This document shows, one piece after another, positions 16,355 through 59,533 of a stretch of DNA of 64,000 nucleotides. The notes under the pieces were generated by a model that had not been told where the DNA came from, ran no database searches, and saw only the letters and a program-made list of their open reading frames with translations. The DNA lies in the NCBI GenBank assembly GCA_963746465.1, contig CAVVAY010000007.1, positions 508,937 through 572,936 of the forward strand, written 5' to 3'. This DNA is from an uncultured Actinomycetota bacterium (GTDB lineage: Bacteria > Actinomycetota > Actinomycetes > JACCUZ01). Position numbers and translations under genes: made by a program. Position 1 is the stretch's first letter, and each line of letters starts with the position of its first letter.

Positions 16355-17532
16355 ACTGGCTGGACCTCGTGCTGCTGGTCTCGGCGCTGTCGTTCGCCTT
16401 CTCGGGCTACCGGCAGGGCTTCGTGGTGGGCGTACTGGCGTTCGCCGGGTTCCTCACCGGTGGAGTGGTGGGGCTGCTGCTTGCGCCGCGGATGGTCTCG
16501 CGGGTCGAACCCGGCCTCGGGCAGTCGCTGCTCGCGGTGGCCGTGGTGCTGCTGGCCGCGACCATCGGGCAGGTCGCCCTCGGTTGGCTCGGGTCGTTGG
16601 TGCGCAACCGCATCACCTGGCGGCCGGCGCGAGTGCTCGACGCCGGGCTCGGGGCGGCGGTGAGCGTCGTCGCGATGCTCGTGATCGCCTGGTTCCTGGC
16701 ATCCTCGCTGCGTCCCGGGCCGCTGCCGTCGCTGTCGCGCCAGATCAGCGACTCGCAGGTGGTCACCACCGTCGACCAGGTGATGCCGGAGCGCGCCCGG
16801 ACGCTGTTCTCCTCGTTCCGGCAGGTGCTCGACGACAACGAGCTGCCGACGGTGTTCGGCGGTCTGTCCCCGGAGCGGATCAGGCCGGTCCCGCCGCCGG
16901 ACGGCGCGATCACCGGCACCGCAGCGGTCCGTCGGGCCTCGGCCAGCGTGGTGAAGGTCAGCGGCACCGCTGACGACTGCAGCCGGAGCCTCGACGGCAG
17001 CGGCTTCGTCTACGCCCGCCAGCACGTGCTGACCAACGCGCACGTCGTCGCGGGCGTGGACGACCCGCAGGTCCGGGTCAACGGCACCGACCAGCGGCTG
17101 GACGCGGAAGTGGTCCTCTTCGACCCGGACCGTGACCTCGCGGTGCTGTACGTGCCCGACCTCACCGCGACCCCGCTCGACCTGGACGACTCCGGTCACC
17201 GCGGCGACCAGTCCGTGGTCGCCGGCTACCCGGGTGGCGGCCCGTACCGGCTGGTCGCAGCCCGCATCCGCGACACCATCAACGCCCGCGGCCCGGACAT
17301 CTACCACCGCAAGCAGATCACCCGCGAGGTGTTCTCGCTGTACGCCGACGTCGAGCCGGGCAACTCCGGTGGTCCGCTGCTCACCCCGGACGGCGACGTG
17401 TACGGCGTGGTCTTCGCCAAGTCGCTGGACGACGCGGACACCGGCTATGCGCTGACCGTCGACGAGGCCCGCAGCGTCGCGCGCGCCGGCCGGAAGGCGA
17501 CCCGCGCGGTCGACACCGACACCTGCGCCTGA
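16351..17532 (+). CDS. MarP-family membrane-anchored serine protease (S1 chymotrypsin-like)
   Basis: It has multiple N-terminal TM helices and a C-terminal trypsin-like domain (TNAHVV, DLAVL, GNSGGP). The GTG start overlaps the previous stop as GTGA. It is syntenic with Mtb Rv3671c. Confidence 0.85.
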   Translation: MNWLDLVLLVSALSFAFSGYRQGFVVGVLAFAGFLTGGVVGLLLAPRMVSRVEPGLGQSLLAVAVVLLAATIGQVALGWLGSLVRNRITWRPARVLDAGLGAAVSVVAMLVIAWFLASSLRPGPLPSLSRQISDSQVVTTVDQVMPERARTLFSSFRQVLDDNELPTVFGGLSPERIRPVPPPDGAITGTAAVRRASASVVKVSGTADDCSRSLDGSGFVYARQHVLTNAHVVAGVDDPQVRVNGTDQRLDAEVVLFDPDRDLAVLYVPDLTATPLDLDDSGHRGDQSVVAGYPGGGPYRLVAARIRDTINARGPDIYHRKQITREVFSLYADVEPGNSGGPLLTPDGDVYGVVFAKSLDDADTGYALTVDEARSVARAGRKATRAVDTDTCA

Positions 17533-27977: not shown

Positions 27978-28121
27978 GTATCGAGCATAGGGACGGCAAA
28001 ATCCGCCCTGTGCGGGGGCGCAACGTTTGCGTGTCGGGCCGAGACGGGTACATCCTGGACCTGGAGCTTCGCTGCGACGAAGCACCCAGTGTCCGGCCCA
28101 TCCCCCCCGGGTCGGACCGCA

Positions 28122-28155
28122 GACGGCCCCCGCTCTCCCCCCGGCGGGGGCCGTC
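28122..28155. promoter_or_regulatory. 10-bp perfect inverted repeat GACGGCCCCC-N14-GGGGGCCGTC in the Tad-locus leader
   Basis: Read from the sequence. It lies about 110 bp upstream of the ssd/cpaE-like start, in the 290-bp divergent intergenic region. Confidence 0.3.
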
Positions 28156-28267
28156 GCATGTCCGTCCCCAGGTCGACCGCCGCTCACCGTCTTCCCCAGA
28201 TGCCTCCGCGGGTCCGTCGGCGGCCGTCGTCCCGGGCCACCGTGGTCACCCGACCTCGGAGGTTGCC

Positions 28268-29329
28268 GTGCCCGCTCGACCGCTGCTGCTCACCGGCGAC
28301 CCGGCCCTGCTCGACGACCTGCTGCGGCTGGCCGCGTCGGCCGGTGTCGAGACCGAGGTCGCCCACGACGTCGTCGCGGCCCGCGGTCCCTGGGCCGCCG
28401 CACCGCTGGTGCTGGTGGGCGTGGACGCCGTCGGCGAGCTGGCGCGGGCCGCACTGCCGCGTCGGCCCGGCGTGCTGGTGGTGCCGACGGACCTGGACGA
28501 CGACGGGGTCTGGGCACTCGCATCGGCCGCCGGTGCCGAGTCGGTGCAGCCGTTGCCCGGTGCCGAGGTGCTGCTCGCCGACCGGCTGGCAGCCTCGGCC
28601 GACGGTCCGGTGCGCGGGGCGACCGTCGCGGTCCTGGGGGGTCGCGGGGGTGCCGGTGCGTCGACCCTTGCGTGTGCCCTGTCCCGCGTCGCAAGGGACA
28701 GCCGCGCGGTGCTGCTCGTGGACGCCGACCCGTACGGCGGCGGGCTGGACCTGCTGATGGGCGCCGAGGACCTGCCGGGCCTGCGCTGGCCGGACCTGGC
28801 CACGGCCCGGGGACGCGCCAGCCCGGACGAGCTGCGGGCGGCGCTGCCCCGCGCCGACGGCGTGACCCTGCTGTCCTGGCACCGCGGCGAACCGGTCGAG
28901 CTGCCACCGGCGGCGATGGACCTCGTCCTCGGAGCCGGTCGGCGCGGTCACGACCTGGTCGTCGTCGATCTCCCGCGCAGCCTGGACCCGGCCGCCATGA
29001 CGGCGGTCTCCGCTGCCGACACCGTGCTGCTCGTCGTGCCGGCCGAGGTCCGATCGGTGGCGGCGGCCCGTCAGCTGGTGGCCCTGCTCGCCGGCCGGGT
29101 CGCCGACCTCCGGCTGGTCGTGCGCGGCCCGTCACCGGCCCGGTTGACCGACCGGCTGGTCGCTGCCGAGCTCGGCCTGCCCCTGGTCGGCTGGCTGGCC
29201 CCGGAGCCCGGGCTGGCCGGTGCGCAGGAACGTGGCGAGCCGCCGGGCCGCACCGGTCGCGGACCGCTGGCCCGGCTGTGTGCCGGGCTGCTCGCCGACC
29301 TCACCGGAGCCGCGGGCCGGGTGGCGTGA
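28268..29329 (+). CDS. septum-site-determining / CpaE-like (TadZ-like) ParA-superfamily protein of the Tad locus
   Basis: The GTG start has a GGAGG Shine-Dalgarno 5 nt upstream. The ParA/MinD-like fold has a lysine-less P-loop, GGRGGAGAST. It is syntenic with Mtb Rv3660c. Confidence 0.75.
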   Translation: MPARPLLLTGDPALLDDLLRLAASAGVETEVAHDVVAARGPWAAAPLVLVGVDAVGELARAALPRRPGVLVVPTDLDDDGVWALASAAGAESVQPLPGAEVLLADRLAASADGPVRGATVAVLGGRGGAGASTLACALSRVARDSRAVLLVDADPYGGGLDLLMGAEDLPGLRWPDLATARGRASPDELRAALPRADGVTLLSWHRGEPVELPPAAMDLVLGAGRRGHDLVVVDLPRSLDPAAMTAVSAADTVLLVVPAEVRSVAAARQLVALLAGRVADLRLVVRGPSPARLTDRLVAAELGLPLVGWLAPEPGLAGAQERGEPPGRTGRGPLARLCAGLLADLTGAAGRVA

Positions 29330-30483
29330 GCACCCACCCGGCGCTGGTGACCCGGGTCGCCGAACGGCTCGCGCTCGCCGGGCAGGCACCGACCGCAGCC
29401 GCCGTGACGACGGCCGTGCGGCACGAGGGTGCGGTGCTGGGCGGCCCGGGGCTGCTCGCGTTGGTGGCCGAGGTCCGCTCCGAGCTGACCGGCTTCGGGC
29501 CGTTGGAGCCGTTGCTCGCCGACGACGAGGTGAGCGACGTCCTCGTCAACGGTCCCGGCGAGGTGTGGGTCGACCGCGGGACCGGGCTGACCCGGGCCGA
29601 CGTCCGGTTCCGCGACGAAGCAGCGGTTCGCCGGCTGGCGCAACGGCTGGCGGCATCGGCCGGGCGGCGCCTCGACGTCGCGCGGCCGACGGTGGACGCG
29701 CGGTTGGCCGGCGGTGTGCGGCTGCACGCCGTCCTGCCGCCGGTGTCACCGGCCGGCACCCTGGTCAGCCTCCGGGTGGCCCGGCGGCGCACCTTCACGC
29801 TGGCCGAGCTGGTGGCTCGCGGCACGGTGCCTCTCGGCCTCGACCACGTCCTGGACGACCTGGTGCTGGCCCGGGTGTCGTTCCTGGTCACCGGCGGCAC
29901 CGGAAGCGGCAAGACGACGTTGCTCGCCACCCTGCTGTCGCGGGTGCCCCTCGCCGAGCGGATCGTGCTGGTGGAGGACTCCGGCGAGCTGGCCCCGAGT
30001 CATCCGCACGTGCTGCGGCTCGAGGCGCGCACCGCGAACGTCGAGGGTGCGGGTGCCGTCGACCTGCGCGCGCTCGTCCGCGAGGCGCTGCGGATGCGCC
30101 CGGACCGGATCGTCGTCGGCGAGGTCCGCGGCGGTGAGGTGGTCGAGCTGCTGGCTGCTCTGAACACCGGCCACGACGGCGGTGCGGGCACCGTGCATGC
30201 GTCGACCGTCGCCGCGGTCCCGGCCCGGCTCGAGGCACTCGCCCTGGCCGCCGGGATGCCGCGTGAAGCGCTGCACAGCCAGCTCGCCGCGGGGGTCCAG
30301 GCCGTCGTGCACCTGGTCCGGACGCCGGCAGGTGAGCGCCGGGTGCGCGAGATCGGGTGCGTGCTGCGCGAGCGAGACGGCTTGACCCGGGTGGCTACGG
30401 CGCTACGGGTCGACGACGCCGGACGGCTCGTCCCCGGCGAGGCGGCGGGCACGTTGACGTCGCTGCTGGCGAGCGGTCCGTGA
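29326..30483 (+). CDS. tadA: CpaF/TadA family type II/IV secretion ATPase
   Basis: It has Walker [10 protein letters not shown], a Walker B/Asp box and a His box. The GTG start overlaps the previous stop as GTGA. Confidence 0.9.
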
Positions 30484-31271
30484 CCCCCGCCGCCGCGTTG
30501 GCCATCGGGTTGGCGGCGGCTGCCGGGGCCGTCCAGCCCGGCGACCGGGGGTCGGTCCTGCAGCGTTTGTCGACGGCTCGCCCCGCTCGTCGACGGCGTC
30601 CCTCGGCGGACCTTGCCTGGTGGGCTCCGGTGCCGGTCGTGGCCGTCCTCGCGGGCTGGTCCGGTCGATCGGTTCTGCTCGGTGCCGCCGCCGGGCTGGC
30701 CGCACTGGCCGGCGCCAGAGCGGTCTCGGCCCGAGCGGCCCGACGTCGCGCGGCCGGCAGACGGGCTGCCGCCGTCGACCTGCTCGGCTCGTTGGCGGCC
30801 GAGCTCCGCGGTGGTGCCCCGCCGCGAGCCGCACTCGCGGAGGCATCGGCTGCACGCCACCCGGCACTTGCCGCGGCGGCCTGTAGCCCGGCCGCCGACG
30901 TCGTGCACGCACTGGCCGCAGCCGACGACGGCGTCGGCCTGCTCGCCGACCTTGCCGTGGCCTGGCGACTCGTCGAGGTCACCGGAGCCCGGCTGGCCGG
31001 ACCGGCGGCCCGGCTGGCCGAGTCGTCGCGGGCCGACGAGGCCGTCCGGCGCGAGGTCGCGGCTCAGTTGGCCGGTCCGCGGGCCACAGCCCTGCTCCTC
31101 GCGCTGCTGCCGTGCGCCGGCATCCTGCTCGGCGTCGGGCTCGGCGCCGACCCAGGCGGTTTCCTGCTCTCGACCGAGCCGGGTCGGCTGTGCCTGCTCG
31201 TCGGTTCGTCGTTGGTTGCGGCCGGCGTCACCTGGACCGAGGCGATCGTCGCCAGGGCCGAGTGTCCGTGA
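30480..31271 (+). CDS. tadB: TadB-like (type II secretion system F-domain) membrane protein
   Basis: The GTG start overlaps the tadA stop. It has multiple TM segments and a length (263 aa) and position typical of TadB. Confidence 0.7.
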
Positions 31272-31490
31272 CGGCTGCCTCAGCCGCGGTGCTGCTCGCG
31301 GCGCTGGCCGGGTTGGTCGCCGGCCGCGGCCGGTCCGGCGCCACGCGGCTGCGCCGGCTGCGGCGGCTGCGGCGGCGAGTGCCGAGGTCGGGCCGGGCAG
31401 CTGAGCCGGTCTCTCTGCGGCGCCGGACGGTGGCGGGGTCGGAGCCGGCTGCCTGGGTCGCCCGAGCGGTGGTCGGCCGTCGCGGCCGCG

Positions 31491-32042
31491 ATGCTGGTCA
31501 CCGGTCACGGCGCGGGCGCTGTCGTGCTGGTCGTCCTTGCACTGGCCGTGGGCATGCCCCACGCCCGTCGTCGCCGGCAGGCCGCCCTCGCGCAGCGCGT
31601 CGTGGACCGGGACCTCCCCCGGGCCGCGGACCTCACCGCCACCTGCCTGGAGGCGGGGGCTGCGCCGGCGGACGCCCTGATCGCGGTGGGGGACGCGCTC
31701 GGCGGGCCGGTGGGGACGCGCCTACGTTCGGTGTCGCTCGCCGTACGGGCGGGTTCCGACCTTCCCGACCTCGCGCGCCCTGACGACACGGACCCGCTCG
31801 CGGCCCTGCTCCGCGCGGTCGCCCGGGCGACAGCCACCGGGGCGCCGCTCGCGGACTCGGTGCGCGACGTCGCGGCCGACCAGCGGGAGCGTGCCCGTTG
31901 GCTGGCGCTCGAGCGCGCCCGCCGGGCCGGGGTATACGCCGTCGGCCCGCTCGCCGTGTGCTTCCTCCCGGCGTTCGTCGTGGTCGGCGTCGTGCCGGTC
32001 GTCGTCGGCGTCGCCCGGACGCTCCTTGCCGGCTGGTCGTGA
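31491..32042 (+). CDS. tadC: TadC-like (T2SS F-domain) membrane protein
   Basis: The 183-aa product has N- and C-terminal TM helices and a size matching mycobacterial TadC. A 220-bp gap to tadB contains an alternative frame (see findings). Confidence 0.55.
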
Positions 32043-32195
32043 CCCGTCCACAGCCGGCCGAAGGTGGCGGTCCGTCCACATCTCCGGTCGGCGTCGGCTG
32101 GAAGGCACCGTCGCCGCCCACCGTGGAGGTGGGCCGGGCGACACCGGTCACCGATGGCGCCGCCGGTCGTGGCGCGGCACGAGCTGAGGTGAGAC

Positions 32196-32387
32196 ATGGC
32201 GAGACCTGGAGTTGGCGAGCGGGTCGCGGGCGCTGGTCGCGAGCGGGGCATGACGACGGCGGAGTACGCCGTGGGGACTGTGGCCGCCTGCGGCTTCGGC
32301 GGCATCCTGTACAAGGTCCTCACCAGCCCAGACGTCGCGCGGATGCTCAAGGACCTCGTCGAGCGCGCGCTCAGCACTGCGTTCTGA
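32196..32387 (+). CDS. flp: Flp-family type IVb pilin
   Basis: The 63-aa product has the Flp prepilin processing motif G/MTTAEYAVGTVAA followed by a hydrophobic helix. Confidence 0.7.
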   Translation: MARPGVGERVAGAGRERGMTTAEYAVGTVAACGFGGILYKVLTSPDVARMLKDLVERALSTAF

Positions 32388-32408
32388 CGTGCTGCGTTCT
32401 GACGTGCT
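32379..32408. repeat. perfect 15-bp tandem duplication (GCGTTCTGACGTGCT x2) spanning the flp stop and the tadE start
   Basis: Read directly from the sequence. It creates two in-frame GTG candidate starts for tadE-like, at 32389 and 32404. Confidence 0.7.
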
Positions 32409-32781
32409 GCCACGACGCGCCGACGGCCCCCGGGACCGCGGGTCGGCGACCGCCGAGCTGGCTGTGGTGCTGCCGGCCGTCGTGCTGCTCGCGGTGCTCG
32501 GGGTCTGGGCGGTCGCGGTCGTGGCGGCGCACCTACGCTGTGTCGACGCCGCCGGCGCAGGCGCTCGCGCCCTGGCGCGGGGGGAGCCGGCCGGGGTGGT
32601 CGAGGGAGTCGTCGCGCAGGTCGCTCCCCGGGGAGCGGTCGTCCGGCTGGGTCGCGACGGCGACCTCGTGGTCGTCGAGGTGCGGACGACGGTCCGGCTG
32701 CCGGGCCCGTGGTCGCGGGACGGGCCGGGGGTGACCGTCGGGGACCGCGCGGTCGCCGTCGCCGAGGACACCGACCCGTGA
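32389..32781 (+). CDS. TadE/TadG-family pilus assembly (pseudopilin-like) protein
   Basis: It has the TadE N-terminal motif DRGSATAELAVVLPAVVLL. The GTG start overlaps the duplicated 15-mer. Confidence 0.7.
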   Translation: MLRSDVLPRRADGPRDRGSATAELAVVLPAVVLLAVLGVWAVAVVAAHLRCVDAAGAGARALARGEPAGVVEGVVAQVAPRGAVVRLGRDGDLVVVEVRTTVRLPGPWSRDGPGVTVGDRAVAVAEDTDP

Positions 32782-33158
32782 GGCGACGCCGACCGGTGAC
32801 GCGCTCCGCTGCCGACCGCGGGTCGGCCGGGTTGCTGATGGTGTGGGTCGCCGCGGTCGTGCTGGCGGCTACGACCGCGGCGGTGGTCTGGGGCGCAGCC
32901 GTGGTGGCCCGGCACCGCGCATCCCGGACCGCCGACCTCGCGGCACTGGCGGCGGCTCGCGAGGTGGTCTCCGGCGCCGGTCAGCCGTGCACCGCCGCAG
33001 CCCGGATCGCCGATTCGGTCGGCGCCGACGTCGCGAGCTGCCGGCTCCTGCCGGACGGCTCGGTGCTGGTGGTCGTCGAGCTACCGGTGCCGGTCGCCGT
33101 GGCGGGCCTGGACATGCCACCGGCCCGGGCGAGGGCCCGGGCCGGTGCGTCGTCCTGA
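32778..33158 (+). CDS. TadE-like protein (second pseudopilin-like gene)
   Basis: The GTG at 32778 overlaps the previous stop as GTGA. It has the motif RGSAGLLMVWVAAVVLAATTAAVV. The 149-aa track ORF starts further upstream, inside tadE-like. Confidence 0.55.
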   Translation: MRRRRPVTRSAADRGSAGLLMVWVAAVVLAATTAAVVWGAAVVARHRASRTADLAALAAAREVVSGAGQPCTAAARIADSVGADVASCRLLPDGSVLVVVELPVPVAVAGLDMPPARARARAGASS

Positions 33159-33172
33159 AACGAGGCCGGTCG

Positions 33173-33711
33173 TCAGACCTCGTCGCGGTGCCGGCCGGAG
33201 GTGGAGGTGGAGGTGCTGGCCGCCTCGTCGTGCGTGGTGAGGTCGGTGTGCTGGTGCTCCACCCGGCCGTCGCTGCCGACCGTGTCCGGTCGCATCGCGG
33301 TCGAGCCGGGGCGCTCGGCCACGGTCTCGTCGTTGACCGCGGCGGTCTCGCCGGTGGTGGTGGTGCGGGGTCGGGCCGACGGTCGCGGGCGAGCTTCTCC
33401 TGCAGCTGCTCGTTCTCGGCCCGCAGCTGGGCGCGCTCCTCCTCGATCTTCGAGACCGACTCGCGCTGGCGCGACCTGGTCTCCTTGCGCTCGAGGCGCT
33501 TGCGACGCGACCTGGCGAGCGACTTCATCAGCAGGTACACACCGAGGAAGAACAGCAGCATCGTCGCGATACCGGCGACGAAGACGCCGCTGACGGTGGT
33601 GCCGATCGTCTGGCCGAAGACCTCGAACTCAGCGTCCTCACCGCCGTCGTAGATGGCACCGGCGGTCACAGCGGCAGCAACGATCATGAACAGAAGGCCG
33701 AGAGCCAACAT
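33173..33711 (-). CDS. membrane protein with two TM helices plus a coiled coil, apparently frameshifted at a (CCA)4 run
   Basis: The N-terminal 110 aa are in the frame of the 33711 start. Beyond about 33365 GC3 collapses in that frame. GC3 is very high in the -1 frame, which terminates at 33173 with ...DEAASTSTSTSGRHRDEV*. The 280-aa track ORF ending at 32869 is rejected as an artefact. Confidence 0.45.
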
Positions 33712-33757: not shown

Positions 33758-36112
33758 TCATGCACCTGCCGGCCGGCTGTCGCCGAGCACCACCGCGAGC
33801 AGCTGCAAGGCGCCAGCCTTGTCCAGCGGCTCGTTGCCGTTGCCGCACTTGGGCGACTGCACACAGGACGGACACCCCTCGAGGCACTCGCAGGCTGCGA
33901 TCGCGTCGTAGGTCGCGGTGAGCCACTCGACGGCCGCCCCGTGCCCGCGCTCGGCGAACCCCGCCCCGCCTGGGTGCCCGTCGTACACGAAGACCGTCAT
34001 CCGGCCGGTGTCGGCGTGGTGCGCGGTCGACACCCCGCCGATGTCCCACCGGTCGCAGGTCGCGAACAGCGGCAGCAGCCCGATCGACGCGTGCTCGGCG
34101 GCGTGCGCGGCGCCCGGTACGTCGAGCGCGCCAAGGCCGGCCCGCTCCAGCCCGGCATCGTCGACCGTCCACCAGACCGCCCGGGTCCGCAGGTGCCGGG
34201 GCGGCAGGTCCAGCGGCTCCTCGCCGAGCACCTCACCGGTGATCATCCGGCGGCGCAGGAAGGACACCACCTGGTTGGTCACCTGCACGGTGCCGAACGA
34301 GAGCGTGACGTGCTCCCACTCCCGTGAGCGGGCGGTCTCGACGATCTCGATCTCGGTGACGTCACGGGCCACCGTCGACCAGTCCGGCGCCGCCCGGGCC
34401 ATCCGGGCGACCTGGTCGGCGAGGTCCAGCTCGGACACCAGGTACGTCTCGCCCTGGTGCACGTAGACCGCGCCGGCGTGCACCGTCACGTGCGAGGCCG
34501 CCCCGTCGACGGTGCCCAGCAGCCGCCCGGTGCCCTCCTCGACCAGGCCCACCGGCCCGGACCCGACGCCGCGGATGTCGGCCAGGTCGCTGGCCCGCTC
34601 CGCCCGGGTCCAGTACAGACCGGGTGCCCGGCGGCGCAGCATCCCGCGGGAGACCAGGTGGTCGGCCACCTGGTCGGCGTCCGGCGCGAAGGCCGTCAGC
34701 TCGTCGTCCCGCAGCGGTGGCAGCTCGGCGGCGGCCGCGCACAGGTGCGGCGCCAGCACGTGCGGGTTGCCCGGGTCGAGCACCGTCGCCTCGACGGGGC
34801 GCCCGAACAGCGTCTCGGGGTGGTGGGTGAGGTAGGTGTCCAGCGGGTCGTCCCGGGCGACCATGACCGCGAGGGCGCCCTGGCCGGCGCGACCGGCCCG
34901 CCCGGCCTGCTGCCACAGCGAGGCCCGGGTGCCCGGCCACCCGGCGAGCAGCACGGCGTCCAGCCCGGCCACGTCGACCCCGAGCTCCAACGCGGTCGTC
35001 GACGCCACCCCGAGCAGCCGGCCGGACTGCAGGTCGGCCTCCAGCGCGCGCCGCTCCTCGGGCAGGTAGCCGGCGCGGTAGGCCGCCACCCGCGCGGCCA
35101 GGTCGGGGTCGACCTCCGCCAGCAGCCGCCGGGTGGTGGACGACACGGTCTCGGCCGCGCGCCGGGAGCGGACGAAGGCCACCGTGCGCACACCGTCGGC
35201 GACCAGGTCGGCCAGCAGGTCGGCCACCTCGGCGGTGGCGCTCCGGCGTACCGGCGCCTGGTTCTCACCCGCCAGCTCGGTCAGTGGCGGCTCCCACAGC
35301 GCGAACAACAGCTCGCCCCGCGGGGACCCGTCCTCGGTGACCGGCACCACCTCGCGGCCGACCAGCCGGGCGCCGGACACCTCCGGGTCGGTGACCGTCG
35401 CCGACGCCAGGACGAACACCGGGTCGGCGCCGTAGTGGGCGCAGACCCGCTGCAGCCGCCGGAGCACCGCCGCTACGTGCGACCCGAACACCCCGCGGTA
35501 TCGGTGGCACTCGTCGACCACGACGTACTGCAGGTCGCGGAAGAACCGGGCCCACCGGGGGTGCCCCGGCAGCATCGACCGGTGCAGCATGTCGGGGTTG
35601 GTCAGCACGTACGACGCGTGCCGGCGCACCCAGTCGCGGGACTCGGTCGGCGTGTCACCGTCGTAGGTCGCGGCACGCACCGCCTCCAGACCGAGCCCGC
35701 CCAGGGCGCGCAGCTGGTCGGCTGCCAGTGCCTTGGTGGGGGAGAGGTAGAGCGTGGTCGGAGGCGTCGCGACCCCGCCCGCCTCGGCCGACTCGAGCAC
35801 GGCCGACAGCGCGGGCAGCAGGTAGCAGAGCGACTTGCCGGACGCCGTGCCGGTTGCCACCACGGTCGACCGCCCGGCGCGGGCCAGCTCGGCCGCCTGC
35901 ACCTGGTGCGACCAGGGGGCAGTGACGCCGCTCGTGACCAGCGCCTCGACGACCGCCGGATGGGTCCAGGTCGGCCAGTCGACCGGCCGTCCGGGCCGCC
36001 CCGGCACCCGCTCGACGTGGGTGAGCCGGTCGCGCCGGCCGGTCGGCGCGACCAACCGGGCCAGCCGCTCGTCCGCCAGGCTCGCGGCCGGGAGCGGGTG
36101 GGGCTGCGGCAC
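33758..36112 (-). CDS. DEAD/DEAH-box helicase with C-terminal DUF1998 (MrfA/YprA-like)
   Basis: It has Walker [10 protein letters not shown], a DECH box, SAT, motif [10 protein letters not shown] and a C-terminal cysteine cluster [25 protein letters not shown]. The GTG at 36112 is preferred. GC3 drops upstream of it. It is syntenic with Mtb Rv3649. Confidence 0.85.
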
Positions 36113-36242
36113 CTCGGCAGTGTGCCACCCGCGTACGACATGGCCGGGGATGGTTGAATGCGACCGGTCACGGGGCACACCCGGGGCAGCAGACACCCGG
36201 CAGAACGTGCCCGACCGGACCCCGACGACAGCAGGAGGACTT

Positions 36243-36584
36243 GTGGACCTCTCCCTCTCGACCCGTACCGAGGGCGACCGCACCATCGTCGAGGTGGGTG
36301 GCGAGATCGACGTCTACACCGCCCCGCGGCTCCGCGAGCAGCTGGTCGACCTGGTCGCCGACGGCAAGTACCACCTCGTCGTCGACATGGAGCGGGTCGA
36401 CTTCCTCGACTCCACCGGGCTCGGCGTCCTGGTCGGCGGCCTCAAGCGGGTCCGCGCCCACGACGGCTCCCTGCGCCTGGTCTGCACCCAGGAGCGCATC
36501 CTGAAGATCTTCCGGATCACCGGGCTCACCAAGGTCTTCCCGATCCACGCGTCGGTCGAGGAAGCGGTCGCAGCCACCGAGTGA
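36243..36584 (+). CDS. anti-sigma factor antagonist (STAS domain, SpoIIAA-like)
   Basis: The GTG start has an AGGAGG Shine-Dalgarno 4-5 nt upstream. It has the [14 protein letters not shown] motif with the phosphorylatable Ser/Thr. Confidence 0.85.
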
Positions 36585-51189: not shown

Positions 51190-51263
51190 GCCGCCTTAGC
51201 TCAGTCGGCTAGAGCGACGCACTCGTAATGCGTAGGTCATCGGTTCGACTCCGATAGGCGGCT
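51190..51263 (+). tRNA. tRNA-Thr (anticodon CGT)
   Basis: The sequence GCCGCCTTAGCTCAGTCGGCTAGAGCGACGCACTCGTAATGCGTAGGTCATCGGTTCGACTCCGATAGGCGGCT folds by hand into a cloverleaf with anticodon loop CTCGTAA. CCA is not encoded. Confidence 0.9.
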
Positions 51264-51266
51264 CTA

Positions 51267-51358: not shown

Positions 51359-51895
51359 ATGGCAAACAACCACGTGACGTTGACGGAGCCGCCTCGGAAC
51401 GGGTCCGAGATCGACACGCTCGTCGGGTCGCTCGAGCGGGGGCGGCGCTACCTGCGCTGGAAGTGCGCCGGGCTCGATGCGACCGGCCTGAGGGCGACCC
51501 TCGGACCGTCCACCGTCACTCTCGGCGGGCTGCTCAAGCACCTGGCCTACATGGAGGATGCGAACTTCTCCCTCGCTCTGCACGGCAACGAGCGGGCCGC
51601 GCCCTGGCGAGGCGTCGAGCAGCCCGGTGAGTGGGCCTTCACATCGGCCGTGCACGACAGCCCGGAGGAGCTGTTCGCCTTGTGGGAGAGCTCGGTCGCG
51701 GCGGCCAGGGCGAATATCGTCAAGGCCGACCGCCTCGGCGGCCCGGGCTTCACCGCGAGCTATGCCGGGCAGACCTACAGCCTTCGGCGGATCCTCGCGG
51801 ACATGGTCGAGGAGTACCTGCGGCATGTCGGTCACGCGGATCTGATTCGCGAGTCCATCGACGGACTGGTCGGCGAGGACCCGGACGACGACTGA
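51359..51895 (+). CDS. DinB-family / DUF664 protein (mycothiol-dependent maleylpyruvate isomerase N-terminal-like fold)
   Basis: The product is 178 aa with the conserved LRWKCAGL..., HLAYMEDANF and EEYLRHVGHADLIRE features. Confidence 0.7.
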   Translation: MANNHVTLTEPPRNGSEIDTLVGSLERGRRYLRWKCAGLDATGLRATLGPSTVTLGGLLKHLAYMEDANFSLALHGNERAAPWRGVEQPGEWAFTSAVHDSPEELFALWESSVAAARANIVKADRLGGPGFTASYAGQTYSLRRILADMVEEYLRHVGHADLIRESIDGLVGEDPDDD

Positions 51896-51907
51896 CGCAC
51901 CCTGGCG

Positions 51908-52885
51908 ATGTCCGCGGGATGGGACCATGGTGGGGTGCCCGACGAGGAACGGTCCGGCGTGCGGCTGACCAACCTGGACCAGCCGTTGTTCGCCGACGCC
52001 GGCGCCACCAAGCGCGACCTGGTCGACTACCTGGATGCCGTTGCCGACCGGTTCGTGCCCGTGCTCGCCGGGCGCGCGTTGAGCGTCGTCCGGGTGCTCC
52101 GCGGACAGAAACCGTTCATGCAGAAGAACCTGCCCGCCTACGCTCCTGGGTCGATCGCGACTGTTGACATTCCGACCCAGGACGGGAAGCGGGTCGTCCA
52201 CTACCCGGTCTGCGACGACCGCGAGAGCCTGCTGTGGTTCGCCAACCAGCGGGCGGTCGAGTACCACCCCACGCTGTTCCAGGGTCTGGCTTCCGACCTG
52301 CCCACGCACCTGGTGGTGGACATCGACCCACCTGCCGGGACCGACGCATTCGCGCGCGCAGTGCAGGCCGCCCTTCTCGTACGCACTGTTCTCGGCGATG
52401 CCGGGATGACCGCGCTGCCCAAGACCAGCGGCGCGAAGGGGGTGCACGTCGTGGTCCCCCTGGCCTCGGGCCAGTCGGCCATGGACGCCGCGGCCGCCAC
52501 CCGCGCGATCGCCGCCCGCGCGGAGCGACTGGACCCGGGGCTCACGACGACCGCCTTCGTCGTGGAGGAGCGGGGCGACAAGGTCTTCCTCGACTCGACG
52601 CGAGCGGGTGGCGCGACCGTGGTGGCGACGTACAGCCCCCGGGTCCGCCCCGGCGTCCCGGTGTCGTTCCCGGTGGCCTGGGACGACCTCGCCGGCGCAT
52701 CGCCGGCCGACTTCACCCTGGCGAGCGTCCCCCGGCTGCTCGCCGACTCCGACCCGTGGGCCGCACTGCCGCCGCCACAGGTCATCGATCCCGGTCTGGT
52801 CGAAGAGGGACACACCATCCCGGTCGCGCGGGTGGCGGCGATGCACGAAGGCAAGCGCCGCGCGCGAGCCCGCCGGGAGAGCTGA
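51908..52885 (+). CDS. stand-alone NHEJ polymerase/primase domain protein (LigD Pol domain)
   Basis: The 325-aa product has conserved LigD-Pol motifs (PLFADAGATKRDL, LVVDIDP, TSGAKGVHVVVPL). Confidence 0.85.
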   Translation: MSAGWDHGGVPDEERSGVRLTNLDQPLFADAGATKRDLVDYLDAVADRFVPVLAGRALSVVRVLRGQKPFMQKNLPAYAPGSIATVDIPTQDGKRVVHYPVCDDRESLLWFANQRAVEYHPTLFQGLASDLPTHLVVDIDPPAGTDAFARAVQAALLVRTVLGDAGMTALPKTSGAKGVHVVVPLASGQSAMDAAAATRAIAARAERLDPGLTTTAFVVEERGDKVFLDSTRAGGATVVATYSPRVRPGVPVSFPVAWDDLAGASPADFTLASVPRLLADSDPWAALPPPQVIDPGLVEEGHTIPVARVAAMHEGKRRARARRES

Positions 52886-52906: not shown

Positions 52907-55712
52907 GTGACGCGCTCGGAACAGGGGACGAGGGTGCCGGCGCTCCTGCTCGAGACGAAGCTCTACGTTCCGCAGTCACCGCGTCGGTTGGTGCAGCGCT
53001 CTCGACTGAGCGAGCGGTTGGACGGCGCCTCCGGGTCGAAGCTGATCCTCGTCTCCGCGCCCGCCGGCTTCGGCAAGTCGACGCTGCTGGCCGAGTGGCT
53101 GGCGAACGGACAGGCCGGGCAGGGCACCGCTGGCGATCGGCGTTCTGTCGCCTGGGTGTCTCTCGACCCTGCAGACAACCAGCCCGCAACCTTCTGGACG
53201 TACGTCGTCGCGGCGCTCCGCACGGTGATACCCGGCGTCGGTGCGGACGCACTCGCGCTCCTCCAGGCGCCGCAACCGGCGCCGATCACCACCGTGCTCA
53301 CGACACTGCTCAACGACCTCGGCGGTGTGGACCGCGACATCGTGCTGGTCCTCGACGACTACCACGTCGTCGACGCGGCCGAGGTGCAGGACGGGATGGC
53401 CTTCCTGCTCGACCATCTTCCTCCGCAGCTGCACCTGGTGATCGCGAGCCGGGCCGACCCGGGACTGCCGCTGGCAAGGCTGCGGGCGCGCGGCGAGCTC
53501 GCCGAGATCCGCGCCGCCGACCTGCGGTTCAGCGCGGAGGAGGCGGTGGCGTACCTCAACGGGGTGATGGGACTGCGGCTCACGGCTGCCGACGTGGCAA
53601 CCCTGGAGGGCCGCACCGAGGGTTGGATCGCCGCCCTGCAGCTGGCAGCGCTGTCGATGCAGGGCCGGGATGACGCCGCCGACTTCATCGCCGGCTTCGC
53701 GGGCGACGCCCGGTACGTCGTGGACTACCTCGTCGAGGAGGTGCTGGCCCGGCAGCCCGACGGGGTCCACGACTTCCTGCTGCAGACCTCCGTCCTGGAC
53801 CGGCTCAGCGGCGCGCTGTGCGACGCCGTCACCGGCGGCACCGGTGGCACTGGTGGCACTGGTGGCACTGGTGGCAAGGCAATGCTGGAGTCGCTGGACC
53901 GGGCCAACCTGTTCCTGGTGCCGCTGGACGACCGGCGCCGGTGGTACCGCTACCACCACCTGTTCGCCGACGTGCTGCGAGCCCGCCTGCACGACGAGCG
54001 GCCCGACGTCGTCCCCGCGCTGCACCGGCGCGCGAGCGACTGGTACGAGGCGAACGGTGAGCGGGCCGTCGCCGTCGAGCACGCTCTGGCCGCCGCGGAC
54101 TTCGACCGCGCGGCGGACCTGGTCGAGCTGGCGGCGCCGGCTCTGCAGCGGGCCCGGCAGGAGGGCACATTGCGTCGGTGGATGGAGGCCATCCCCGAGG
54201 CGCACTTCCGGGTCAGGCCGGTTCTCAGCAACTCGTACGTCGGATCCCTCATGTCCACCGGTCAGATCGAGGGAGTCGAGCCGTACCTGCTCAACGCCGA
54301 GCGGTGGCTGGATGCCATGTCGGCCGAAGGTCACGGACCTCCTGACCGGCCGCCGGAGATGGTGGTCGTGGACGAGGAGGCGTTCCGGAGGCTGCCCACG
54401 TGGGTCGCCGTGCACCGCGCCGGGCAGGCACTGGTGCTCGGCGACCGGGCCGGTTGCCTCACCCACGCCGGTCGGGCGCGAGACCTGGCCGGTCCCGACG
54501 ACCACGTCGGGCGAGGAGCAGCGTCGGCACTCATCGGGTTGGCGTCATGGGGCGACGGGGACGTCAAGGCTGCTCAGGCGGGCTACTCGGAGTCGTGGAA
54601 GCACATGCATGCCGCCGGCCACATCGCCGACATCCTCGGTCTGGCGATCACGCTCGGGGACCTTCACGTCGTCCAGGGACGGCTCGGTGACGCCATGCGC
54701 ACTTACGAGGAGGCGCTGCGACTCGCCGCCGAGCAGGACGGGCCGGTCCTCCGGGGGACCGCCGACATGTACGTCGGAATGGCCGCACTCCAGCGGGAGC
54801 GAGGCGATCTCGGGACCGCGAACGAGCTCCTTGTCCGCAGCCAGGAGCTCGGCCCGCACCTGGCCCTGCCGCAGAACCCTCACCGCTGGCGGATCGCGAA
54901 GGCTCGGGTCCTGGAGGCCGAAGGAGACCTCGAGGGCGCGGTCCAGCTGCTCGACGAGGCGGAGCAGGTGTACGCCGGCGACTTCTCCCCCGACGTGCGG
55001 CCGATCGCAGCGACGAGAGCGCGGGTGCTGATCGCGCAGGGGAGATGGGCCGACGCTCTGAGCTGGGCGCGCGACCGAGAGCTGTCCGTGGACGACGACC
55101 TCAGCTATCTGCGCGAGTACGAGCACGTCACCCTGGCCAGAGCCCTGCTGGCCCGGTGCAGGACCGAGCGTGCCGAGCCAGCCCTGCGACGGGGCACTCG
55201 GGCTGCTGCGGCGGCTGCTCCAGGCAGCCGAGGCCGGCGGCCGGACCGGAACCGTGATCGAGGTCCTGGTGCTGCAGGCGCTCGCGCAGCAGGTGCGCGG
55301 CGACAACTCGGCGGCACTGGTGCCACTGGTGCAGGCCCTGACCTTGGCCGAGCCGGAAGGCTACGTCCGGCTCTTCGTCGACGAGGGCGCGCCCATGGCC
55401 GTGCTCGTGGAGGCAGCCGCCGAACGCGGGATCGCGCCGACGCTACGCCAGACGACTGCTCACGGCCTTCGACGACGCAGACCGAGACCGCCGCTCCGAC
55501 GCAACCAGGGCCTGGTCGAGCCGTTGAGCGGGCGAGAGCTCGACGTGCTGCGGCTGCTGCGAACCGACCTCGGCGGTCCGGACATCGCCCGCGAGCTCGT
55601 GGTGTCGCTGAACACCGTGCGCACCCACACGAAGAACATCTACGCCAAGCTCGGCGTGAACAACCGCCGGGCAGCGGTCCGCCGGGCCGAGGAGCTCGAC
55701 CTGCTGCGGTGA
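52907..55712 (+). pseudogene. LuxR/MalT-family ATP-dependent transcriptional regulator interrupted by a +1 frameshift at a G4 run near 55191-55194
   Basis: The N-terminal P-loop NTPase (SAPAGFGKSTLL) and TPR region are in the frame starting at 52907 up to ...RTERAEPALRR. The C-terminal part, including the LuxR HTH (LSGRELDVLRLLRTDLGGPDIARELVVSLNTVRTHTKNIYAKLGV), is in the +1 frame and ends at 55712. Removing one G restores ...EPALRRALGLLRRLLQAAEAGG.... A sequencing error cannot be excluded. Confidence 0.6.
53834..53875. repeat. 9-bp tandem repeat (GGTGGCACT, about 4.7 copies) encoding a (GGT)n linker inside the LuxR regulator
   Basis: Read from the sequence. It encodes TGGTGGTGGTGGTGGK in frame. 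Confidence 0.7.
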
Positions 55713-55721
55713 TGCCGGTGC

Positions 55722-56965
55722 TCAGCGGACGCGCTTCACCGGCAGGATGGCGGCGGCGCCGAGGAGGGCGCTGACGCCGGCGACGGCGTACAGCACGCCG
55801 TAGCTGCCGTCCGCGACCGCCAGGATGGCCGGCGCCATCGCAGGGGCCAGGGAGAACGGCAGCGCTCCGGCGATGTTGAACACGCCCAGGTCCTTGGCGG
55901 CGCTGCCCTTGTCCGGCAGCACGTCGGCGGCCAGCGCGAGGTCGACGGCCACGTACACGCCGAACCCCAGGCCGCCGATGGCCATGCCGACCAGGAACCC
56001 GTTGACGTCGGTGGCGAGGGCGATGACGAACAACGCCAGGCCGTACACGGTCGACGCGGCGAGGACGAAGAGCTTCCGGCGGCCGGTCCGGTCGGAGAGC
56101 CTGCCCCCGAGCAGCGAGGCAGCGACCACCACCGTGGACTGGACCAGGGTGCCGAGGAACACCTGGCCCGGCACGTCGTCCTCGGCGGTGCCGATCTTCT
56201 CCAGCAGGTAGTACGTCTGGTAGGTCGCCAGGAACGCGTAGGCCAGCACGAACAGGAAGCGGCTGGCGAAGGCCCAGGCGAAGTCCGGAGCCTTGCGCGG
56301 GTTGAAGTAGAACGTGCTGGCGAGCTCTCGCAGCGACCAGGCCGGCTTCTCCGCAGCGGGCCAGACCGCGGTCGTCCAGGGTCGCGGCGAAGAGCAGGAT
56401 GAAGAACCCGCCGACGGCGCACGGGACCATGAACATGGCGAGCTGGTTGCCGGTGAACAGCTTCACCAGGAAGGTGCCGGTCACCGACGCGATCGGCACG
56501 CACACGCCGAGGACGCCGGAGACCGAGCCCCGCTGCGCCGGCGGGACCTGGTCGGGCAGGACCGCGACGAGCGCTGCGAGCAGCGCGTTGAGGAACACCT
56601 GGGCGATGCACCAGCCGACGAGGACCACGGGGATCGTGGGCGCCAGGGCCACGATGAGGATGCCGAGCGAGCCGCCGAGCAGTCCGACGACGATCCACGG
56701 CCGCCGCATGCCCCACCGGGACGAGGTCCGGTCGCTCAGCCTGCCGAAGAACGGGTTGGCGAACATCGCCAGCAGGGCGCGCGACCCCGGCCACCAGCGA
56801 CAGGCTGTTCGGTGCCTGCTCGGTCCCGACCAGGGACTTGACCTTCAGGGCCAGGGTGACCAGCAGCGGCGCGAGGAACAGCAGGCTGGTGCTGATGTAG
56901 GCCAGCGTGTAGCGGGCGATGAAGCCCGGTCCGACCCGGGGTACGGCGGGCGACTCAGGCTCCAC
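55722..56965 (-). pseudogene. MFS transporter gene interrupted by two frameshifts
   Basis: Three successive frames each carry clean MFS-like segments with high GC3. They switch near 56765-56800 and near 56335-56365. The first runs 56965 to about 56780 (MEPESPAVPR...SLSLVAGV). The second runs 56766 to about 56370 (MFANPFFGRLSDR...LFAATLDDR). The third runs from about 56360 to 55722 (...WSLRELASTFYFNPRKAPDFAW...ILPVKRVR). Confidence 0.6.
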
Positions 56966-57015
56966 CGCGGCGAGTCTGCCAGCCGGGCGGCCGCGCGTCG
57001 GAGTTCACCAGCTGA

Positions 57016-57033
57016 ATCACCAGGTGTGGTGAT
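57016..57033. promoter_or_regulatory. perfect palindrome ATCACCA-ggtg-TGGTGAT in the divergent MFS / small-ORF-MMPL promoter region
   Basis: Read from the sequence. It is a candidate operator. Confidence 0.35.
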
Positions 57034-57067
57034 CCCCGCTCACCACATCCGCTCCTACCTTCCGGTC

Positions 57068-57331
57068 ATGAACCAGGCACCAGCCGCGACCGGCGGCCCG
57101 TCCCAGGCCGGGCAGTACGAGATCCGGATCGAGGGCCACCTCGACACCCGGTGGACCGCCTGGTTCGACGGGCTGGCCCTCACCCACGAGACCGATGGCA
57201 CAACGGTCCTGCACGGCCCGGTCGTCGACCAGGCCGCGCTGCACGGCCTGCTCCAGAAGGTCCGCGACCTCGGCCTGCCCCTGGTCTCGGTCATCCACGT
57301 TGCACCCGACTCTCACAGGAGCACACCATGA
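57068..57331 (+). CDS. hypothetical small protein (87 aa) translationally coupled to the MMPL gene
   Basis: The ORF MNQAPAATGG...YEIRIEGHLDTRWTAWFDGLALTHETDGTTVLHGPVVDQAALHGLLQKVRDLGLPLVSV has good GC3. Its stop overlaps the MMPL ATG as ATGA at 57328-57331. Confidence 0.45.
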   Translation: MNQAPAATGGPSQAGQYEIRIEGHLDTRWTAWFDGLALTHETDGTTVLHGPVVDQAALHGLLQKVRDLGLPLVSVIHVAPDSHRSTP

Positions 57332-59533
57332 ACCGCTTCATCCGCCGGATCGGCGACTTCAGCGCACGCAGGCCATGGACGACGATCGGCGCGTGGGCGG
57401 TCCTCGCCGCGCTCGTGGCGGTGCTCTCCGGCGCCGTCGGTGGCGCGTTCGCCGACGACTTCAGCGCACCGGGCAGCGAGAGCGCCGAGGCCATGGAGCT
57501 GCTCGAGGAACGCTTCCCGGCGGAGGCGGGCGGCACTGCGATCGCCGTGTTCGCGGCTCCCGAGGGCGCAGCAGGTGGCCGGCTTCCGGGTCGGCATCGA
57601 GTCGGCCCTGGCGCAGGTCGCGACGATCGACCACGTCGCCGCCGTGAGCGACCCGTTCGAGTCGGGCCGGGTGTCGGCCGACGGGCGGGTCGCGTTCGCG
57701 GAGATCGCGCTGGACGTGCCGTCGACCGAGTTCGGTCGTGACACCGCCACCGAGGTCGTGGCCGCCCTCGAGCCAGCCCGTTCCGGCGGTGTGCAGGCCG
57801 AGTTCGGCGGGGACGCCGCGTTCCTCAACGCCGAGAAGAAGTCCTCTCCGGCGGAGGCGGTCGGCCTTCTCGCCGCGCTCGTCATCCTTCTCGTCGCCTT
57901 CGGCACCGTCGTGGCCGCGCTGGTGCCGATCGTTCTCGCCCTGGTCGCCGTCGGCGTCGGTCTCGCTGGCATCGTGGTCCTGGCCGGCGGCCTGACGATC
58001 TCCACCGCCGCACCGAGCATCGGCGCCCTGGTCGGACTGGGCGTGGGCATCGACTACGCGTTGTTCATCGTCGCCAGGTACCGCGAGAACCGCACCGCGG
58101 GACAGGTCAACTCGCAGGCGCTGTCCGCGGCGATGGGCTCCTCCGGCACTGCGGTCTTCTTCGCCGGCGGCACCGTGGTCCTTGCGATGGCTGCCCTCGC
58201 GCTCACCGGCGTGGGCTTCCTCGCCTCCATCGGGCTCAGCACCTCGATCGTGGTGCTGTTCGCGGTGGCCACCGCCATCACGCTTCTCCCGGCACTTCTG
58301 ACGTTGCTGGGCAACCGCATCGACGCGGGCCGGATCGTCGGCCGGCGTCGGGTCGCCAAAGCCGCCGAGGCCACCGCGTGGTGGCGGCTGGCGCACCGGA
58401 TCTCGGCCCGGCCCTGGCCGTACCTGGTGGCGGGCACGCTCCTGCTCCTGACGCTTGCTGCCCCGGCGCTGTCGCTGGACACCGGTTTCCCGGACGCTGG
58501 TGACAACCCGAAGAGCCAGACCGAGCGGACGGCGTACGACATGCTCGCCGACGGCTTCGGCCCCGGCTTCAACGCGCCCCTGTCCGTCGTCCTCGACCTG
58601 CAGGACACCGGAGTCGGCGCCGACGACGTTCCCGAGCTGGCGGCGCAGATCGCGGCCGACCCGGGCGTCGCGGAGGTCGGCGAGCCGCGGGTCAGCGCCG
58701 ACGGTGACACCGTGGTGCTCCCCACGCTCCCCACCACCGAGCCGTCCGACCCCGCCACCGTGCAGACGCTCGAGCGGATCCGCGCCATCACCCCCGCCGG
58801 TGTCTACGTGACCGGGGCGACTGCGCTGACCCTCGACCTGGACAAGCAGCTCACCGACACGCTGCCGCTGTTCATCGGCGCGATCCTGGCCACCTCGATC
58901 CTGCTGCTGATGATCGTGTTCCGGTCGGTCACCGTCCCGCTGAAGGCGGCGGTGATGAACTTGCTGTCCATCGGCGGCGCCTACGGAGTCGTGGTCGCGG
59001 TCTTCCAGTGGGGCTGGCTGGGTGGGGTGTTCGGCCTCGACGGCACCTACCGGATCGCCTCGCCGCTGCCGGTGATCTTCTTCGCCGTCCTGTTCGGGCT
59101 CTCGATGGACTACGAGGTGTTCCTCGTCTCCCGCATCCGCGAGGCCTACCAGCAGACCGGTGACAACGCCGAGTCCGTCGCCCGCGGGCTGGCGTCCAGC
59201 GGACGGGTCATCACCTCCGGCGCGCTGATCATGGTCGTGGTGTTCCTCTCGTTCGTCACCGACCCCTCGCCGTTCGTGCAGATGATCGGGCTGGGGCTGT
59301 CCACCGCCATCGCGATCGACGCCACCGTCGTCCGCATGGTCCTGGTGCCGGCGACCATGGCGCTGATGGGCCGGGCCAACTGGTGGCTGCCCGGTTGGCT
59401 CGACCGGCTGCTTCCACACCTGAGCCTCGAGGCCGAGGAGCCCGTGCGCGAGGCCACCCCGGTGCCGGTGCCGGCCCAGGGCCAGGCACCGAGCTCACCG
59501 GTCCAGGAGGTGGAGGTCAGCAGCGCATCCTGA
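57328..59533 (+). pseudogene. MMPL-family RND-type transporter with a frameshift near 57565-57575
   Basis: The true N-terminus (MNRFIRRIGDFSARRPWTTIGAWAVLAALVAVLSG...AIAVFAAPEG) is in the frame of the 57151 track ORF. The rest (QQVAGFRVGIESALAQVATIDHVAAVSDPF... to 59533) is in the frame of the 57440 ORF. A 1-nt insertion or 2-nt deletion in gagggcgcagcag explains it. A sequencing error cannot be excluded. Confidence 0.6.

Follow-up and report, generated by a model that had tools for sequence, protein, structure and literature searches.

In bacterial pseudogene clusters, as at the locus described here, several adjacent and functionally linked genes carry frameshifts. Leftover indels and frameshifts have also been documented for soil data and for Nanopore assemblies with less than about 40x coverage (PMC9262707, PMC13087279), and the Microflora Danica data were assembled with Flye and received one round of Medaka and no short-read polishing (PMC12313526). 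We analyzed a 64-kb stretch of DNA (the window) in which three neighboring genes, encoding a LuxR/MalT-type regulator, an MFS transporter, and an MMPL-family transporter, are broken in frame, in the window sequence and the public record alike. We consider it likely that these breaks are local insertion errors of the consensus or its polishing and not mutations of the organism.

A sequence-only reading of the window had placed frame changes in the LuxR, MFS (two), and MMPL genes, and a GC3 frame plot, the continuity of Pfam profiles, and tblastn with intact orthologues confirm all of them near the proposed positions. That reading counted four frameshifts, and over the 64 kb our frame-break detector likewise reports four that are uncompensated (one in LuxR, two in MFS, and one in MMPL). 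When the nucleotide sequence is aligned with those of its closest relatives, L085 and L084 (91 to 92% identity), the count rises to seven, with three more events inside LuxR; the frame-shifting indels lie at ∼55186, 55441, 55478, 55502, 56358, 56779, and 57568. The reading frame shifts by +1 at all seven. Six are single surplus G or C bases, and the seventh (55478) is readable as a single-base insertion too; the chance of such a uniform direction is ∼0.008. The events span ∼2.4 kb (55186 to 57568), with a density of ∼1 per 340 bp. The claim that the frames elsewhere are clean essentially holds: in the remaining 61 kb, the detector gave one further, weak candidate (33381, minus strand), and the probability that four breaks fall inside 2.4 of 64 kb is ∼2e-4. 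The coding signal ends before the stop codon near 1200, 2656, 27084, and 63363 as well, and we regard these cases as natural C-terminal tails, not breaks. Repeats and hairpins at the break sites do not exceed the chance level. The sequence CGCAG/CTGCG is found at 4/7 insertion sites, but it was spotted after the fact, and an error driven by a motif should not stop at 2.4 kb, so we do not claim it as a common insertion motif.

Four of the indels fall in the LuxR/MalT-type (LAL) regulator gene (52907 to 55712, plus strand), as traced by Pfam, tblastn to the L001 LuxR gene, and protein alignments. Once four bases are removed, this gene has 2,796 nt and encodes ∼931 aa, compared to 909 to 930 aa in orthologues. 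The product has the LAL/MalT-like domain set of AAA_16, TPR_MalT, and a GerE helix-turn-helix (HTH) domain in Pfam, and the L082 orthologue has AAA_16, WHD_MalT, TPR_MalT, and GerE. As read, the TPR_MalT profile is split over the break, with positions 3 to 265 matched in one frame and 257 to 335 in the next. The first, uncompensated break (+1) is a surplus G at 55186 on the plus strand (CCCT[G]CGAC), a base missing from L085, L082, L001, and L081. This lesion had been assigned to a G4 run at 55191 to 55194; intact L085 has the same GGGG, which rules out slippage in that run. The other three events are a surplus C at 55441 (GCCGA[C]GCTAC, plus strand, +1), also missing from L085, L082, L001, and L081; a length difference at 55470 to 55478 (plus strand) that is not a multiple of 3 (−8 versus L085 and −2 versus L001 and L081, frame +1) and equals a 9-nt deletion plus one surplus G in GACGAC[G]CAG; and a surplus C at 55502 (CCGACG[C]AACC, plus strand, +1), after which the HTH domain is in frame again. 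These linker breaks lie within 62 nt and cancel one another, scrambling ∼20 codons. In the frame as read, the conserved Y-x-RRLL-x-A motif is gone, and correction brings it back, with frame f1 giving YARRLLTAF past 55441, and the corrected protein agrees with its relatives across the 55470 to 55478 region.

The convergent MFS gene (MFS_1/MFS_2; 55722 to 56965, minus strand) was defined by Pfam, a homologue search, and alignment and is broken twice. In plus-strand letters, its breaks are one surplus G at 56358 to 56360 (AGC[G]GGCC), where L084, L085, and L081 are one base shorter, and a surplus G at 56779 (AGGGC[G]CGCGAC), seen in a three-frame view, as is the first, and in the alignment to relatives; both are +1 in the direction of the gene. 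The corrected product, of 413 aa, shares 93% identity with intact proteins from metagenomes. L081, L084, and L085 have the gene, and L001 and L082 lack it.

The MMPL-family RND transporter gene (57328 to 59533, plus strand; Pfam and NCBIfam) has one break, a surplus G at 57568 (GAGGGC[G]CAGCAG, plus strand, +1). Its GGC[G]CAG context is as first described, and when L082 and L083 are aligned over 2.3 to 2.4 kb, it is the sole gap. Directly after it begins the public gene call P0121. The corrected protein of 734 aa is 87 to 90% identical to intact 724-aa proteins and has both halves of the MMPL domain (PF03176 in two stretches; E = 5.5e-78, Pfam); in NCBIfam, TIGR00833 and MmpL3-type models match below their cutoffs, and no equivalog is assigned. 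Upstream, an intact 87-aa open reading frame (ORF) of no recognized family (57068 to 57331, plus strand) overlaps the MMPL start codon with its stop (ATGA), and the same 4-nt overlap is present in the called gene coordinates of L081 to L084. This ORF is kept in L081, L082, L084, and L085, and its 90% cluster has 96 members; searches of Pfam, NCBIfam, and PDB gave no match to it. The noncoding leader 5′ of the small ORF (57000 to 57067, plus strand) is conserved in L001, L082, L084, and L085 and contains the palindrome ATCACCAGGTGTGGTGAT (57016 to 57033), and it may serve the small-ORF/MMPL operon as its operator or promoter.

The broken genes had been described as adjoining a tRNA-Thr gene. 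This tRNA (anticodon CGT; 51190 to 51264, plus strand; ARAGORN and Rfam) is present and is the only RNA element that Rfam finds, but two intact genes stand between it and LuxR: an MST/DinB-like gene (51359 to 51895; Pfam MST, 1 to 149 of 149) and a stand-alone LigD primase-polymerase gene (51908 to 52885; Pfam LigD_Prim-Pol, 1 to 254 of 254). Both are read in the same frame as LuxR, but we rejected a split gene, since each is a complete, unrelated Pfam domain. An integrated element at the tRNA was rejected, as the region showed neither an integrase nor flanking repeats.

The frame-break detector was also run on 77 high-GC loci. Loci from Microflora Danica Nanopore metagenome-assembled genomes (MAGs) gave 16 candidate breaks per 160 kb, 14 of them +1, versus 35 per 1,188 kb, split 15:20, in the other loci (Fisher P = 0.005; rate P = 4e-5). 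Candidates are scarcer, and of both classes, in isolates and short-read assemblies. By Pfam continuity, L045 has real breaks in ribH, an essential gene (DMRL_synthase, 2 to 57 and 63 to 138), and in a Na/H exchanger gene (6 to 88 and 95 to 373). In L024, two ends of one profile are matched in different frames in NMO, and the Pfam evidence is weaker for Ndh and ABC. The affected comparison loci have ∼1 break per 3 to 4 kb; the window cluster, at 1 per 340 bp, is far denser. The public fragments P0121, P0258, and P0243 lie on one unannotated contig of 820,489 nt (NCBI and ENA), where MMPL and MFS pieces of 652 and 175 aa, respectively, are among the public gene calls. The nearest genome among the matches listed is a Microflora Danica Nanopore MAG, MFD01275.bin.c.22. 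Judging from the metadata pattern and this relatedness, the source contig probably belongs to a long-read (Nanopore-type) MAG of an uncultured high-GC actinobacterium. Apart from fragments of the contig itself, homologue searches with LuxR, MFS, and MMPL found no same-species sequence; the top remaining matches were 93% (MFS), 90% (MMPL), and 79 to 86% (LuxR C terminus) identical, and an exact look-up of the small ORF and P0121 in a contig index gave no match.

Without the surplus bases, all three genes reach full length, run collinear with their intact orthologues at six loci (L001 and L081 to L085), and contain no in-frame stop. Against its relatives, the window has dN/dS values of 0.17 to 0.25, equal to or below those that intact relatives show among themselves. 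Inside the cluster, the changes found in the window alone number 9 at codon positions 1 and 2 and 29 at position 3, which is not above the intact relatives. Bacterial mutation accumulation studies lead one to expect ∼10 substitutions per indel, so seven fixed indels under neutral decay should be accompanied by tens of substitutions. The indels come without the substitutions expected from neutral decay, and relaxed selection is not seen. The lesions here are small indels that hit otherwise conserved genes and bring no substitutions with them, as in long-read consensus artifacts; among the marks of decay, frame-disrupting lesions relative to intact orthologues are present, and relaxed purifying selection and a mixed lesion spectrum are absent.

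These observations bear on genuine, very recent pseudogenization, in which the module is dispensable and LuxR, MFS, and MMPL were each frameshifted in this strain. The breaks do exist in the public record, and loss of a dispensable module would affect three functionally linked neighbors together, as found. The module is accessory, with flanks that differ among relatives and an MFS gene that is present or absent; the small ORF and other neighbors are intact, so degradation would not be uniform. We nevertheless judge pseudogenization improbable. All seven events are +1, and the window lacks the relaxed selection, mixed lesions, deletions, and premature-stop substitutions of known pseudogene clusters, as well as larger lesions. 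The dN/dS and private-substitution pattern is indistinguishable from that of intact relatives; three LuxR events in 62 nt are hard to obtain by independent mutations; and the identical signature is found in other long-read MAGs, ribH included. The sequence-only reading had left two options, a locally decaying accessory block and a local assembly or consensus problem. The first is disfavored, as both an excess of substitutions and a rise in dN/dS are missing, and the second is supported by the +1-only events, the normal dN/dS, and the recurrence in long-read MAG loci.

Far less probable still is a real, local, insertion-only tract, e.g., from error-prone repair synthesis over a strain-variable segment of ∼2.4 kb, which would have inactivated the module in one step and left no substitution footprint. 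It would account for the tight clustering and uniform event type, and the stand-alone gene for a LigD primase-polymerase is found 2.3 kb upstream, though its location is just a coincidence. To our knowledge, no process yields pure +1 insertions over kilobases, which argues against such a tract, and the same signature is scattered over other long-read MAG loci, pointing to the method and not the locus. Programmed +1 frameshifting or other recoding that restores full-length products would explain why every shift has the same direction, but it can be set aside, because the orthologues in the six loci (the comparison that the sequence-only reading had proposed) are intact, shifts occur in 0/6 of these loci and in none of the database homologues listed, all of which are single ORFs, the sites share no slippery motif, and recoding gives no sensible account of three shifts within a 62-nt stretch of poorly conserved linker.

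If the breaks are consensus errors, as we favor, the consensus would be poorly supported over the ∼2.4 kb from 55186 to 57568 and would have gained single surplus G or C bases there. The cluster is far denser than the affected comparison loci, which counts against this reading, and a special local cause must be assumed, since the rest of the window is clean. Strain mixture or a local drop in coverage is plausible because the stretch brackets the MFS gene, which is variably present among related strains. The context of most break sites (GC/CG, not long runs) also counts against a Nanopore error, as the Nanopore indels documented so far lie mostly in homopolymers. The underlying biology would be an intact, ordinary module: a LAL-type LuxR regulator, a convergent MFS gene, and an operon of the small ORF and MMPL that follows a conserved leader with a palindrome.

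The value of these findings lies mainly in quality control, and their biological interest is low. Three genes liable to automatic pseudogene or fragment calls are most likely intact, and to report lost genes or a decaying accessory block in this genome would then be wrong. The +1-only signature recurs in other loci from long-read soil MAGs, among them an essential gene, and should serve as a practical caution when pseudogenes or pangenomes are inferred from such MAGs; we suggest a simple GC3-frame screen for high-GC genomes. Were the insertions real, they would indicate an unusual, insertion-only local mutational process.

With the breaks corrected, the locus resembles known neighborhoods of Actinomycetota in which LAL regulators stand beside MMPL/RND and MFS transporters: the genes share the full domain sets (AAA_16, TPR_MalT, and GerE; two MMPL halves; MFS_1), and the gene order of the window is conserved in relatives. 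It differs from them in its 87-aa partner, a protein that lies outside all described families and is not a membrane protein of the MmpS-like kind. The breaks themselves compare best with the residual indels of Nanopore-only metagenomes, in which single-base indels split conserved genes without substitutions in unpolished or lightly polished MAG contigs and their frequency follows coverage and strain diversity (PMC9262707, PMC13087279, PMC12313526). Published accounts stress homopolymer deletions along low-coverage genomes, whereas the events here are insertions in GC/CG contexts, crowded into 2.4 kb while the 64 kb are otherwise clean. The Microflora Danica MAG loci L024 and L045 carry the same +1 signature as the window.

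With a G+C content of 72%, the window is rich in spurious long ORFs, and reading frames were therefore judged by third-position GC (GC3), profile matches, and orthologues. By these measures, three adjacent genes are frame broken: a LuxR/MalT-type (LAL) regulator (52907-55712, +), an MFS transporter (56965-55722, -), and an MMPL transporter (57328-59533). In the GC3 plot, the coding frame shifts near 55.15, 56.3, 56.78, and 57.5 kb with no intervening stop codon; Pfam TPR_MalT matches the regulator at 3-265 in one frame and at 257-335 in the next; and in L001, the closest genome among the matches listed, LuxR (919 aa) and MMPL (740 aa) are intact, and each of the two proteins aligns to the window in two frames. 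The joined MFS pieces form a 412-aa protein, 93% identical to intact metagenome proteins of 413-431 aa. Over the 64 kb, a break detector, which looks for a coding core stopping short of its stop codon and then a core in another frame, returned exactly the four breaks noted in a sequence-only reading, plus one weak candidate at 33381(-). Thus, that observation stands, and the breaks are far from randomly placed: the chance of four falling inside 2.4 of 64 kb is about 2e-4.

Four proved to be an undercount, though. Base-by-base alignment to the orthologous loci of closer relatives, the metagenome contigs L081-L085 (86-92% nucleotide identity), whose genes are all intact, gives seven frame-disrupting differences, all in the +1 direction. 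Six are at 55186 (CCCT[G]CGAC, extra base in brackets), 55441 (GCCGA[C]GCTAC), 55502 (GACG[C]AACC), 56358-60 (AGC[G]GGCC), 56779 (GGGC[G]CGCG), and 57568 (GGGC[G]CAGC); the other, at 55478, appears as -8 against L085 and -2 against L001 and L081, equivalent to -9 plus an extra G (GACGAC[G]CAG). The three events at 55441-55502 are mutually compensating and therefore escaped the first reading. As read, the LuxR protein is missing a Y-x-RRLL-x-A motif present in every relative; corrected, it reads SYARRLLTAFDDETETAAPTNQGLVEPLS, in agreement with the relatives. The G4 run at 55191-55194, where the LuxR lesion had been placed, is not the lesion, because the intact L085 carries the identical GGGG. 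CGCAG or its complement CTGCG is found at 4/7 insertion sites (55186, 55470-55478, 56352-56360, and 57562-57571), with the extra base in or beside the motif, a post hoc pattern whose significance is not established.

Most likely, these frames were broken by insertion errors that arose locally in the consensus of a long-read MAG. Frameshifting lesions in nature are a mixture of deletions and insertions of varied sizes; here, six or seven of the seven events are single-base insertions, and the chance of all seven pointing in one direction is about 0.008. True recent pseudogenization, the strongest rival, is unlikely, and the decay signal is absent from the broken genes. With the extra bases removed, dN/dS between the window and its relatives is 0.17-0.24 for MFS, 0.19 for the LuxR C terminus, and 0.18-0.25 for MMPL, equal to or below the values between intact relatives; window-private changes in the cluster (9 at codon positions 1+2 versus 29 at position 3) are fewer than or similar to those of intact relatives. 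Since mutation-accumulation studies put bacterial spectra at roughly ten substitutions per indel, seven neutral indels should be accompanied by tens of substitutions over all codon positions, and these are not there among the window-private changes. An unusual but real insertion-only tract is much more doubtful still, and recoding is highly improbable. Confinement also bears on the choice between mutation and error: compared with the same close relatives, LuxR over the 2.3 kb before 55186 and MMPL over the 2.0 kb after 57568 show no such events, and 57568 is the only gap over 2.3-2.4 kb of MMPL alignment to L082 and L083. The frame-break cluster is most likely not a biological feature, and it merits a quality flag.

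The confinement of consensus error may be explained by the MFS gene, which the cluster (55186-57568) brackets with ~0.5 kb on each side. This gene is carried by L081, L084, and L085 and is precisely missing from L001 and L082; comparison of the window with the latter two places this presence/absence difference in the interval bounded by the LuxR stop codon and the leader of the small ORF. Window positions 55713-56987 (~1.27 kb) stand where L082 has ~20 nt (3005-3025), and no flanking repeats were seen at the site. A strain mixture or depth drop around the MFS gene may be the cause: co-occurring strains with and without it would create an assembly bubble, leaving few or conflicting reads for polishing, and a local drop in depth would affect the consensus in the same way.

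The breaks have also entered the public protein database, as fragments on one unannotated 820,489-nt contig (NCBI, ENA). A 652-aa MMPL fragment (P0121) begins directly after 57568, and P0258 is a 175-aa MFS C-terminal fragment; the 87-aa ORF and neighboring intact genes are likewise recorded on that contig. Homologue searches with MFS, MMPL, and the LuxR C terminus found no second assembly of the same species, the next best homologues being at 93%, 90%, and 79-86%, respectively.

Directly after tRNA-Thr(CGT) (51190-51264) lie an MST/DinB-like gene (51359-51895) and a stand-alone LigD primase-polymerase gene (51908-52885), both intact with complete Pfam domains; the reading frame they share with LuxR is a coincidence, and no integrase was found near 51359-52885. 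The LAL regulator combines AAA_16, TPR_MalT, and GerE domains. Within it, a 9-nt tandem repeat at 53837-53876 (GGCACTGGT x 4.4), encoding TGGTGGTGGTGG, adds 9 residues in frame relative to all relatives, which have one copy each. The MFS family is strongly conserved (~80% identity across actinomycete orders). An 87-aa soluble protein (57068-57331; QYEIRIEGHLD...DQAALHGLLQKVRDLGLPLVSV) is conserved and always directly 5' of the MMPL gene; in the window, the TGA of the small ORF overlaps the MMPL ATG (ATGA), and the called coordinates in L081-L084 share the same 4-nt overlap. This protein has no relative in Pfam, NCBIfam, or PDB, its 90% cluster counts 96 members, and it may be an uncharacterized partner of this MMPL subfamily. 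Its leader (57000-57067) is conserved at the nucleotide level in L001, L082, L084, and L085, and in L084 and L085, gene callers annotate a portion of it as extra N-terminal residues (VVIPAHHIRSYLPV). The leader palindrome ATCACCAGGTGTGGTGAT (57016-57033) is a candidate operator for the adjacent regulator; judging from conservation only, the operon of the small ORF and MMPL is probably under the control of this regulator. MMPL itself is an exporter of the RND type, and equivalog models match it far under their cutoffs; it is followed by a pair of ABC transporter genes and a MarR gene.

The candidate at 33381(-) is the sole other one in the window. It lies in a membrane and coiled-coil protein (32869-33711, -) with no Pfam matches, whose coding signal ends at ~33381; the next frame reads ...TTTTGETAAVNDETVAERP...HRDEV*, which might reflect either a break of the -1 type or a natural tail rich in Pro. 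The region ~28000-33700 has 77-79% G+C, a strongly negative AT skew, and weak codon-position signal. Inspected by eye, its ORF translations suggest a Tad/Flp-type secretion cluster, with putative CpaE/TadZ-like, CpaF/TadA ATPase, and TadB/C-like members, adjoined by a large DEAD/DEAH helicase gene (33758-36286, -).

As a control, the same detector was applied to 77 high-GC loci that had been collected for the MMPL family. Of the 16 candidates it returned from 160 kb of Microflora Danica Nanopore MAG loci, 14 were +1; the loci from isolate genomes and short-read MAGs, 1188 kb in all, contained 35, which divided 15:20 between the two classes (Fisher p=0.005, rate p=4e-5). Two loci account for 11 of the Microflora Danica candidates: L024 (MFD02416.bin.2.178) and L045 (MFD01916.bin.2.127) have 5 and 6, respectively, each within ~20 kb, and every one is +1. 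By Pfam continuity across the break, those in L045 ribH (9477-9969, -; Pfam DMRL_synthase 2-57 / 63-138) and Na/H exchanger (15717-17391; Pfam profile 6-88 / 95-373) genes are true breaks; in L024 NMO, two ends of one profile match in different frames, and the Ndh and ABC ATPase breaks have weaker evidence. Because a frameshifted lumazine synthase gene is biologically not credible, +1 breaks characterize assemblies of that kind, and part of the Microflora Danica data looks affected by a systematic insertion-type consensus error. According to its authors, that set was produced with Flye and one Medaka round and received no short-read polishing (PMC12313526), and Nanopore assemblies are documented to retain frameshifts below ~40x coverage and in soil data (PMC9262707, PMC13087279).
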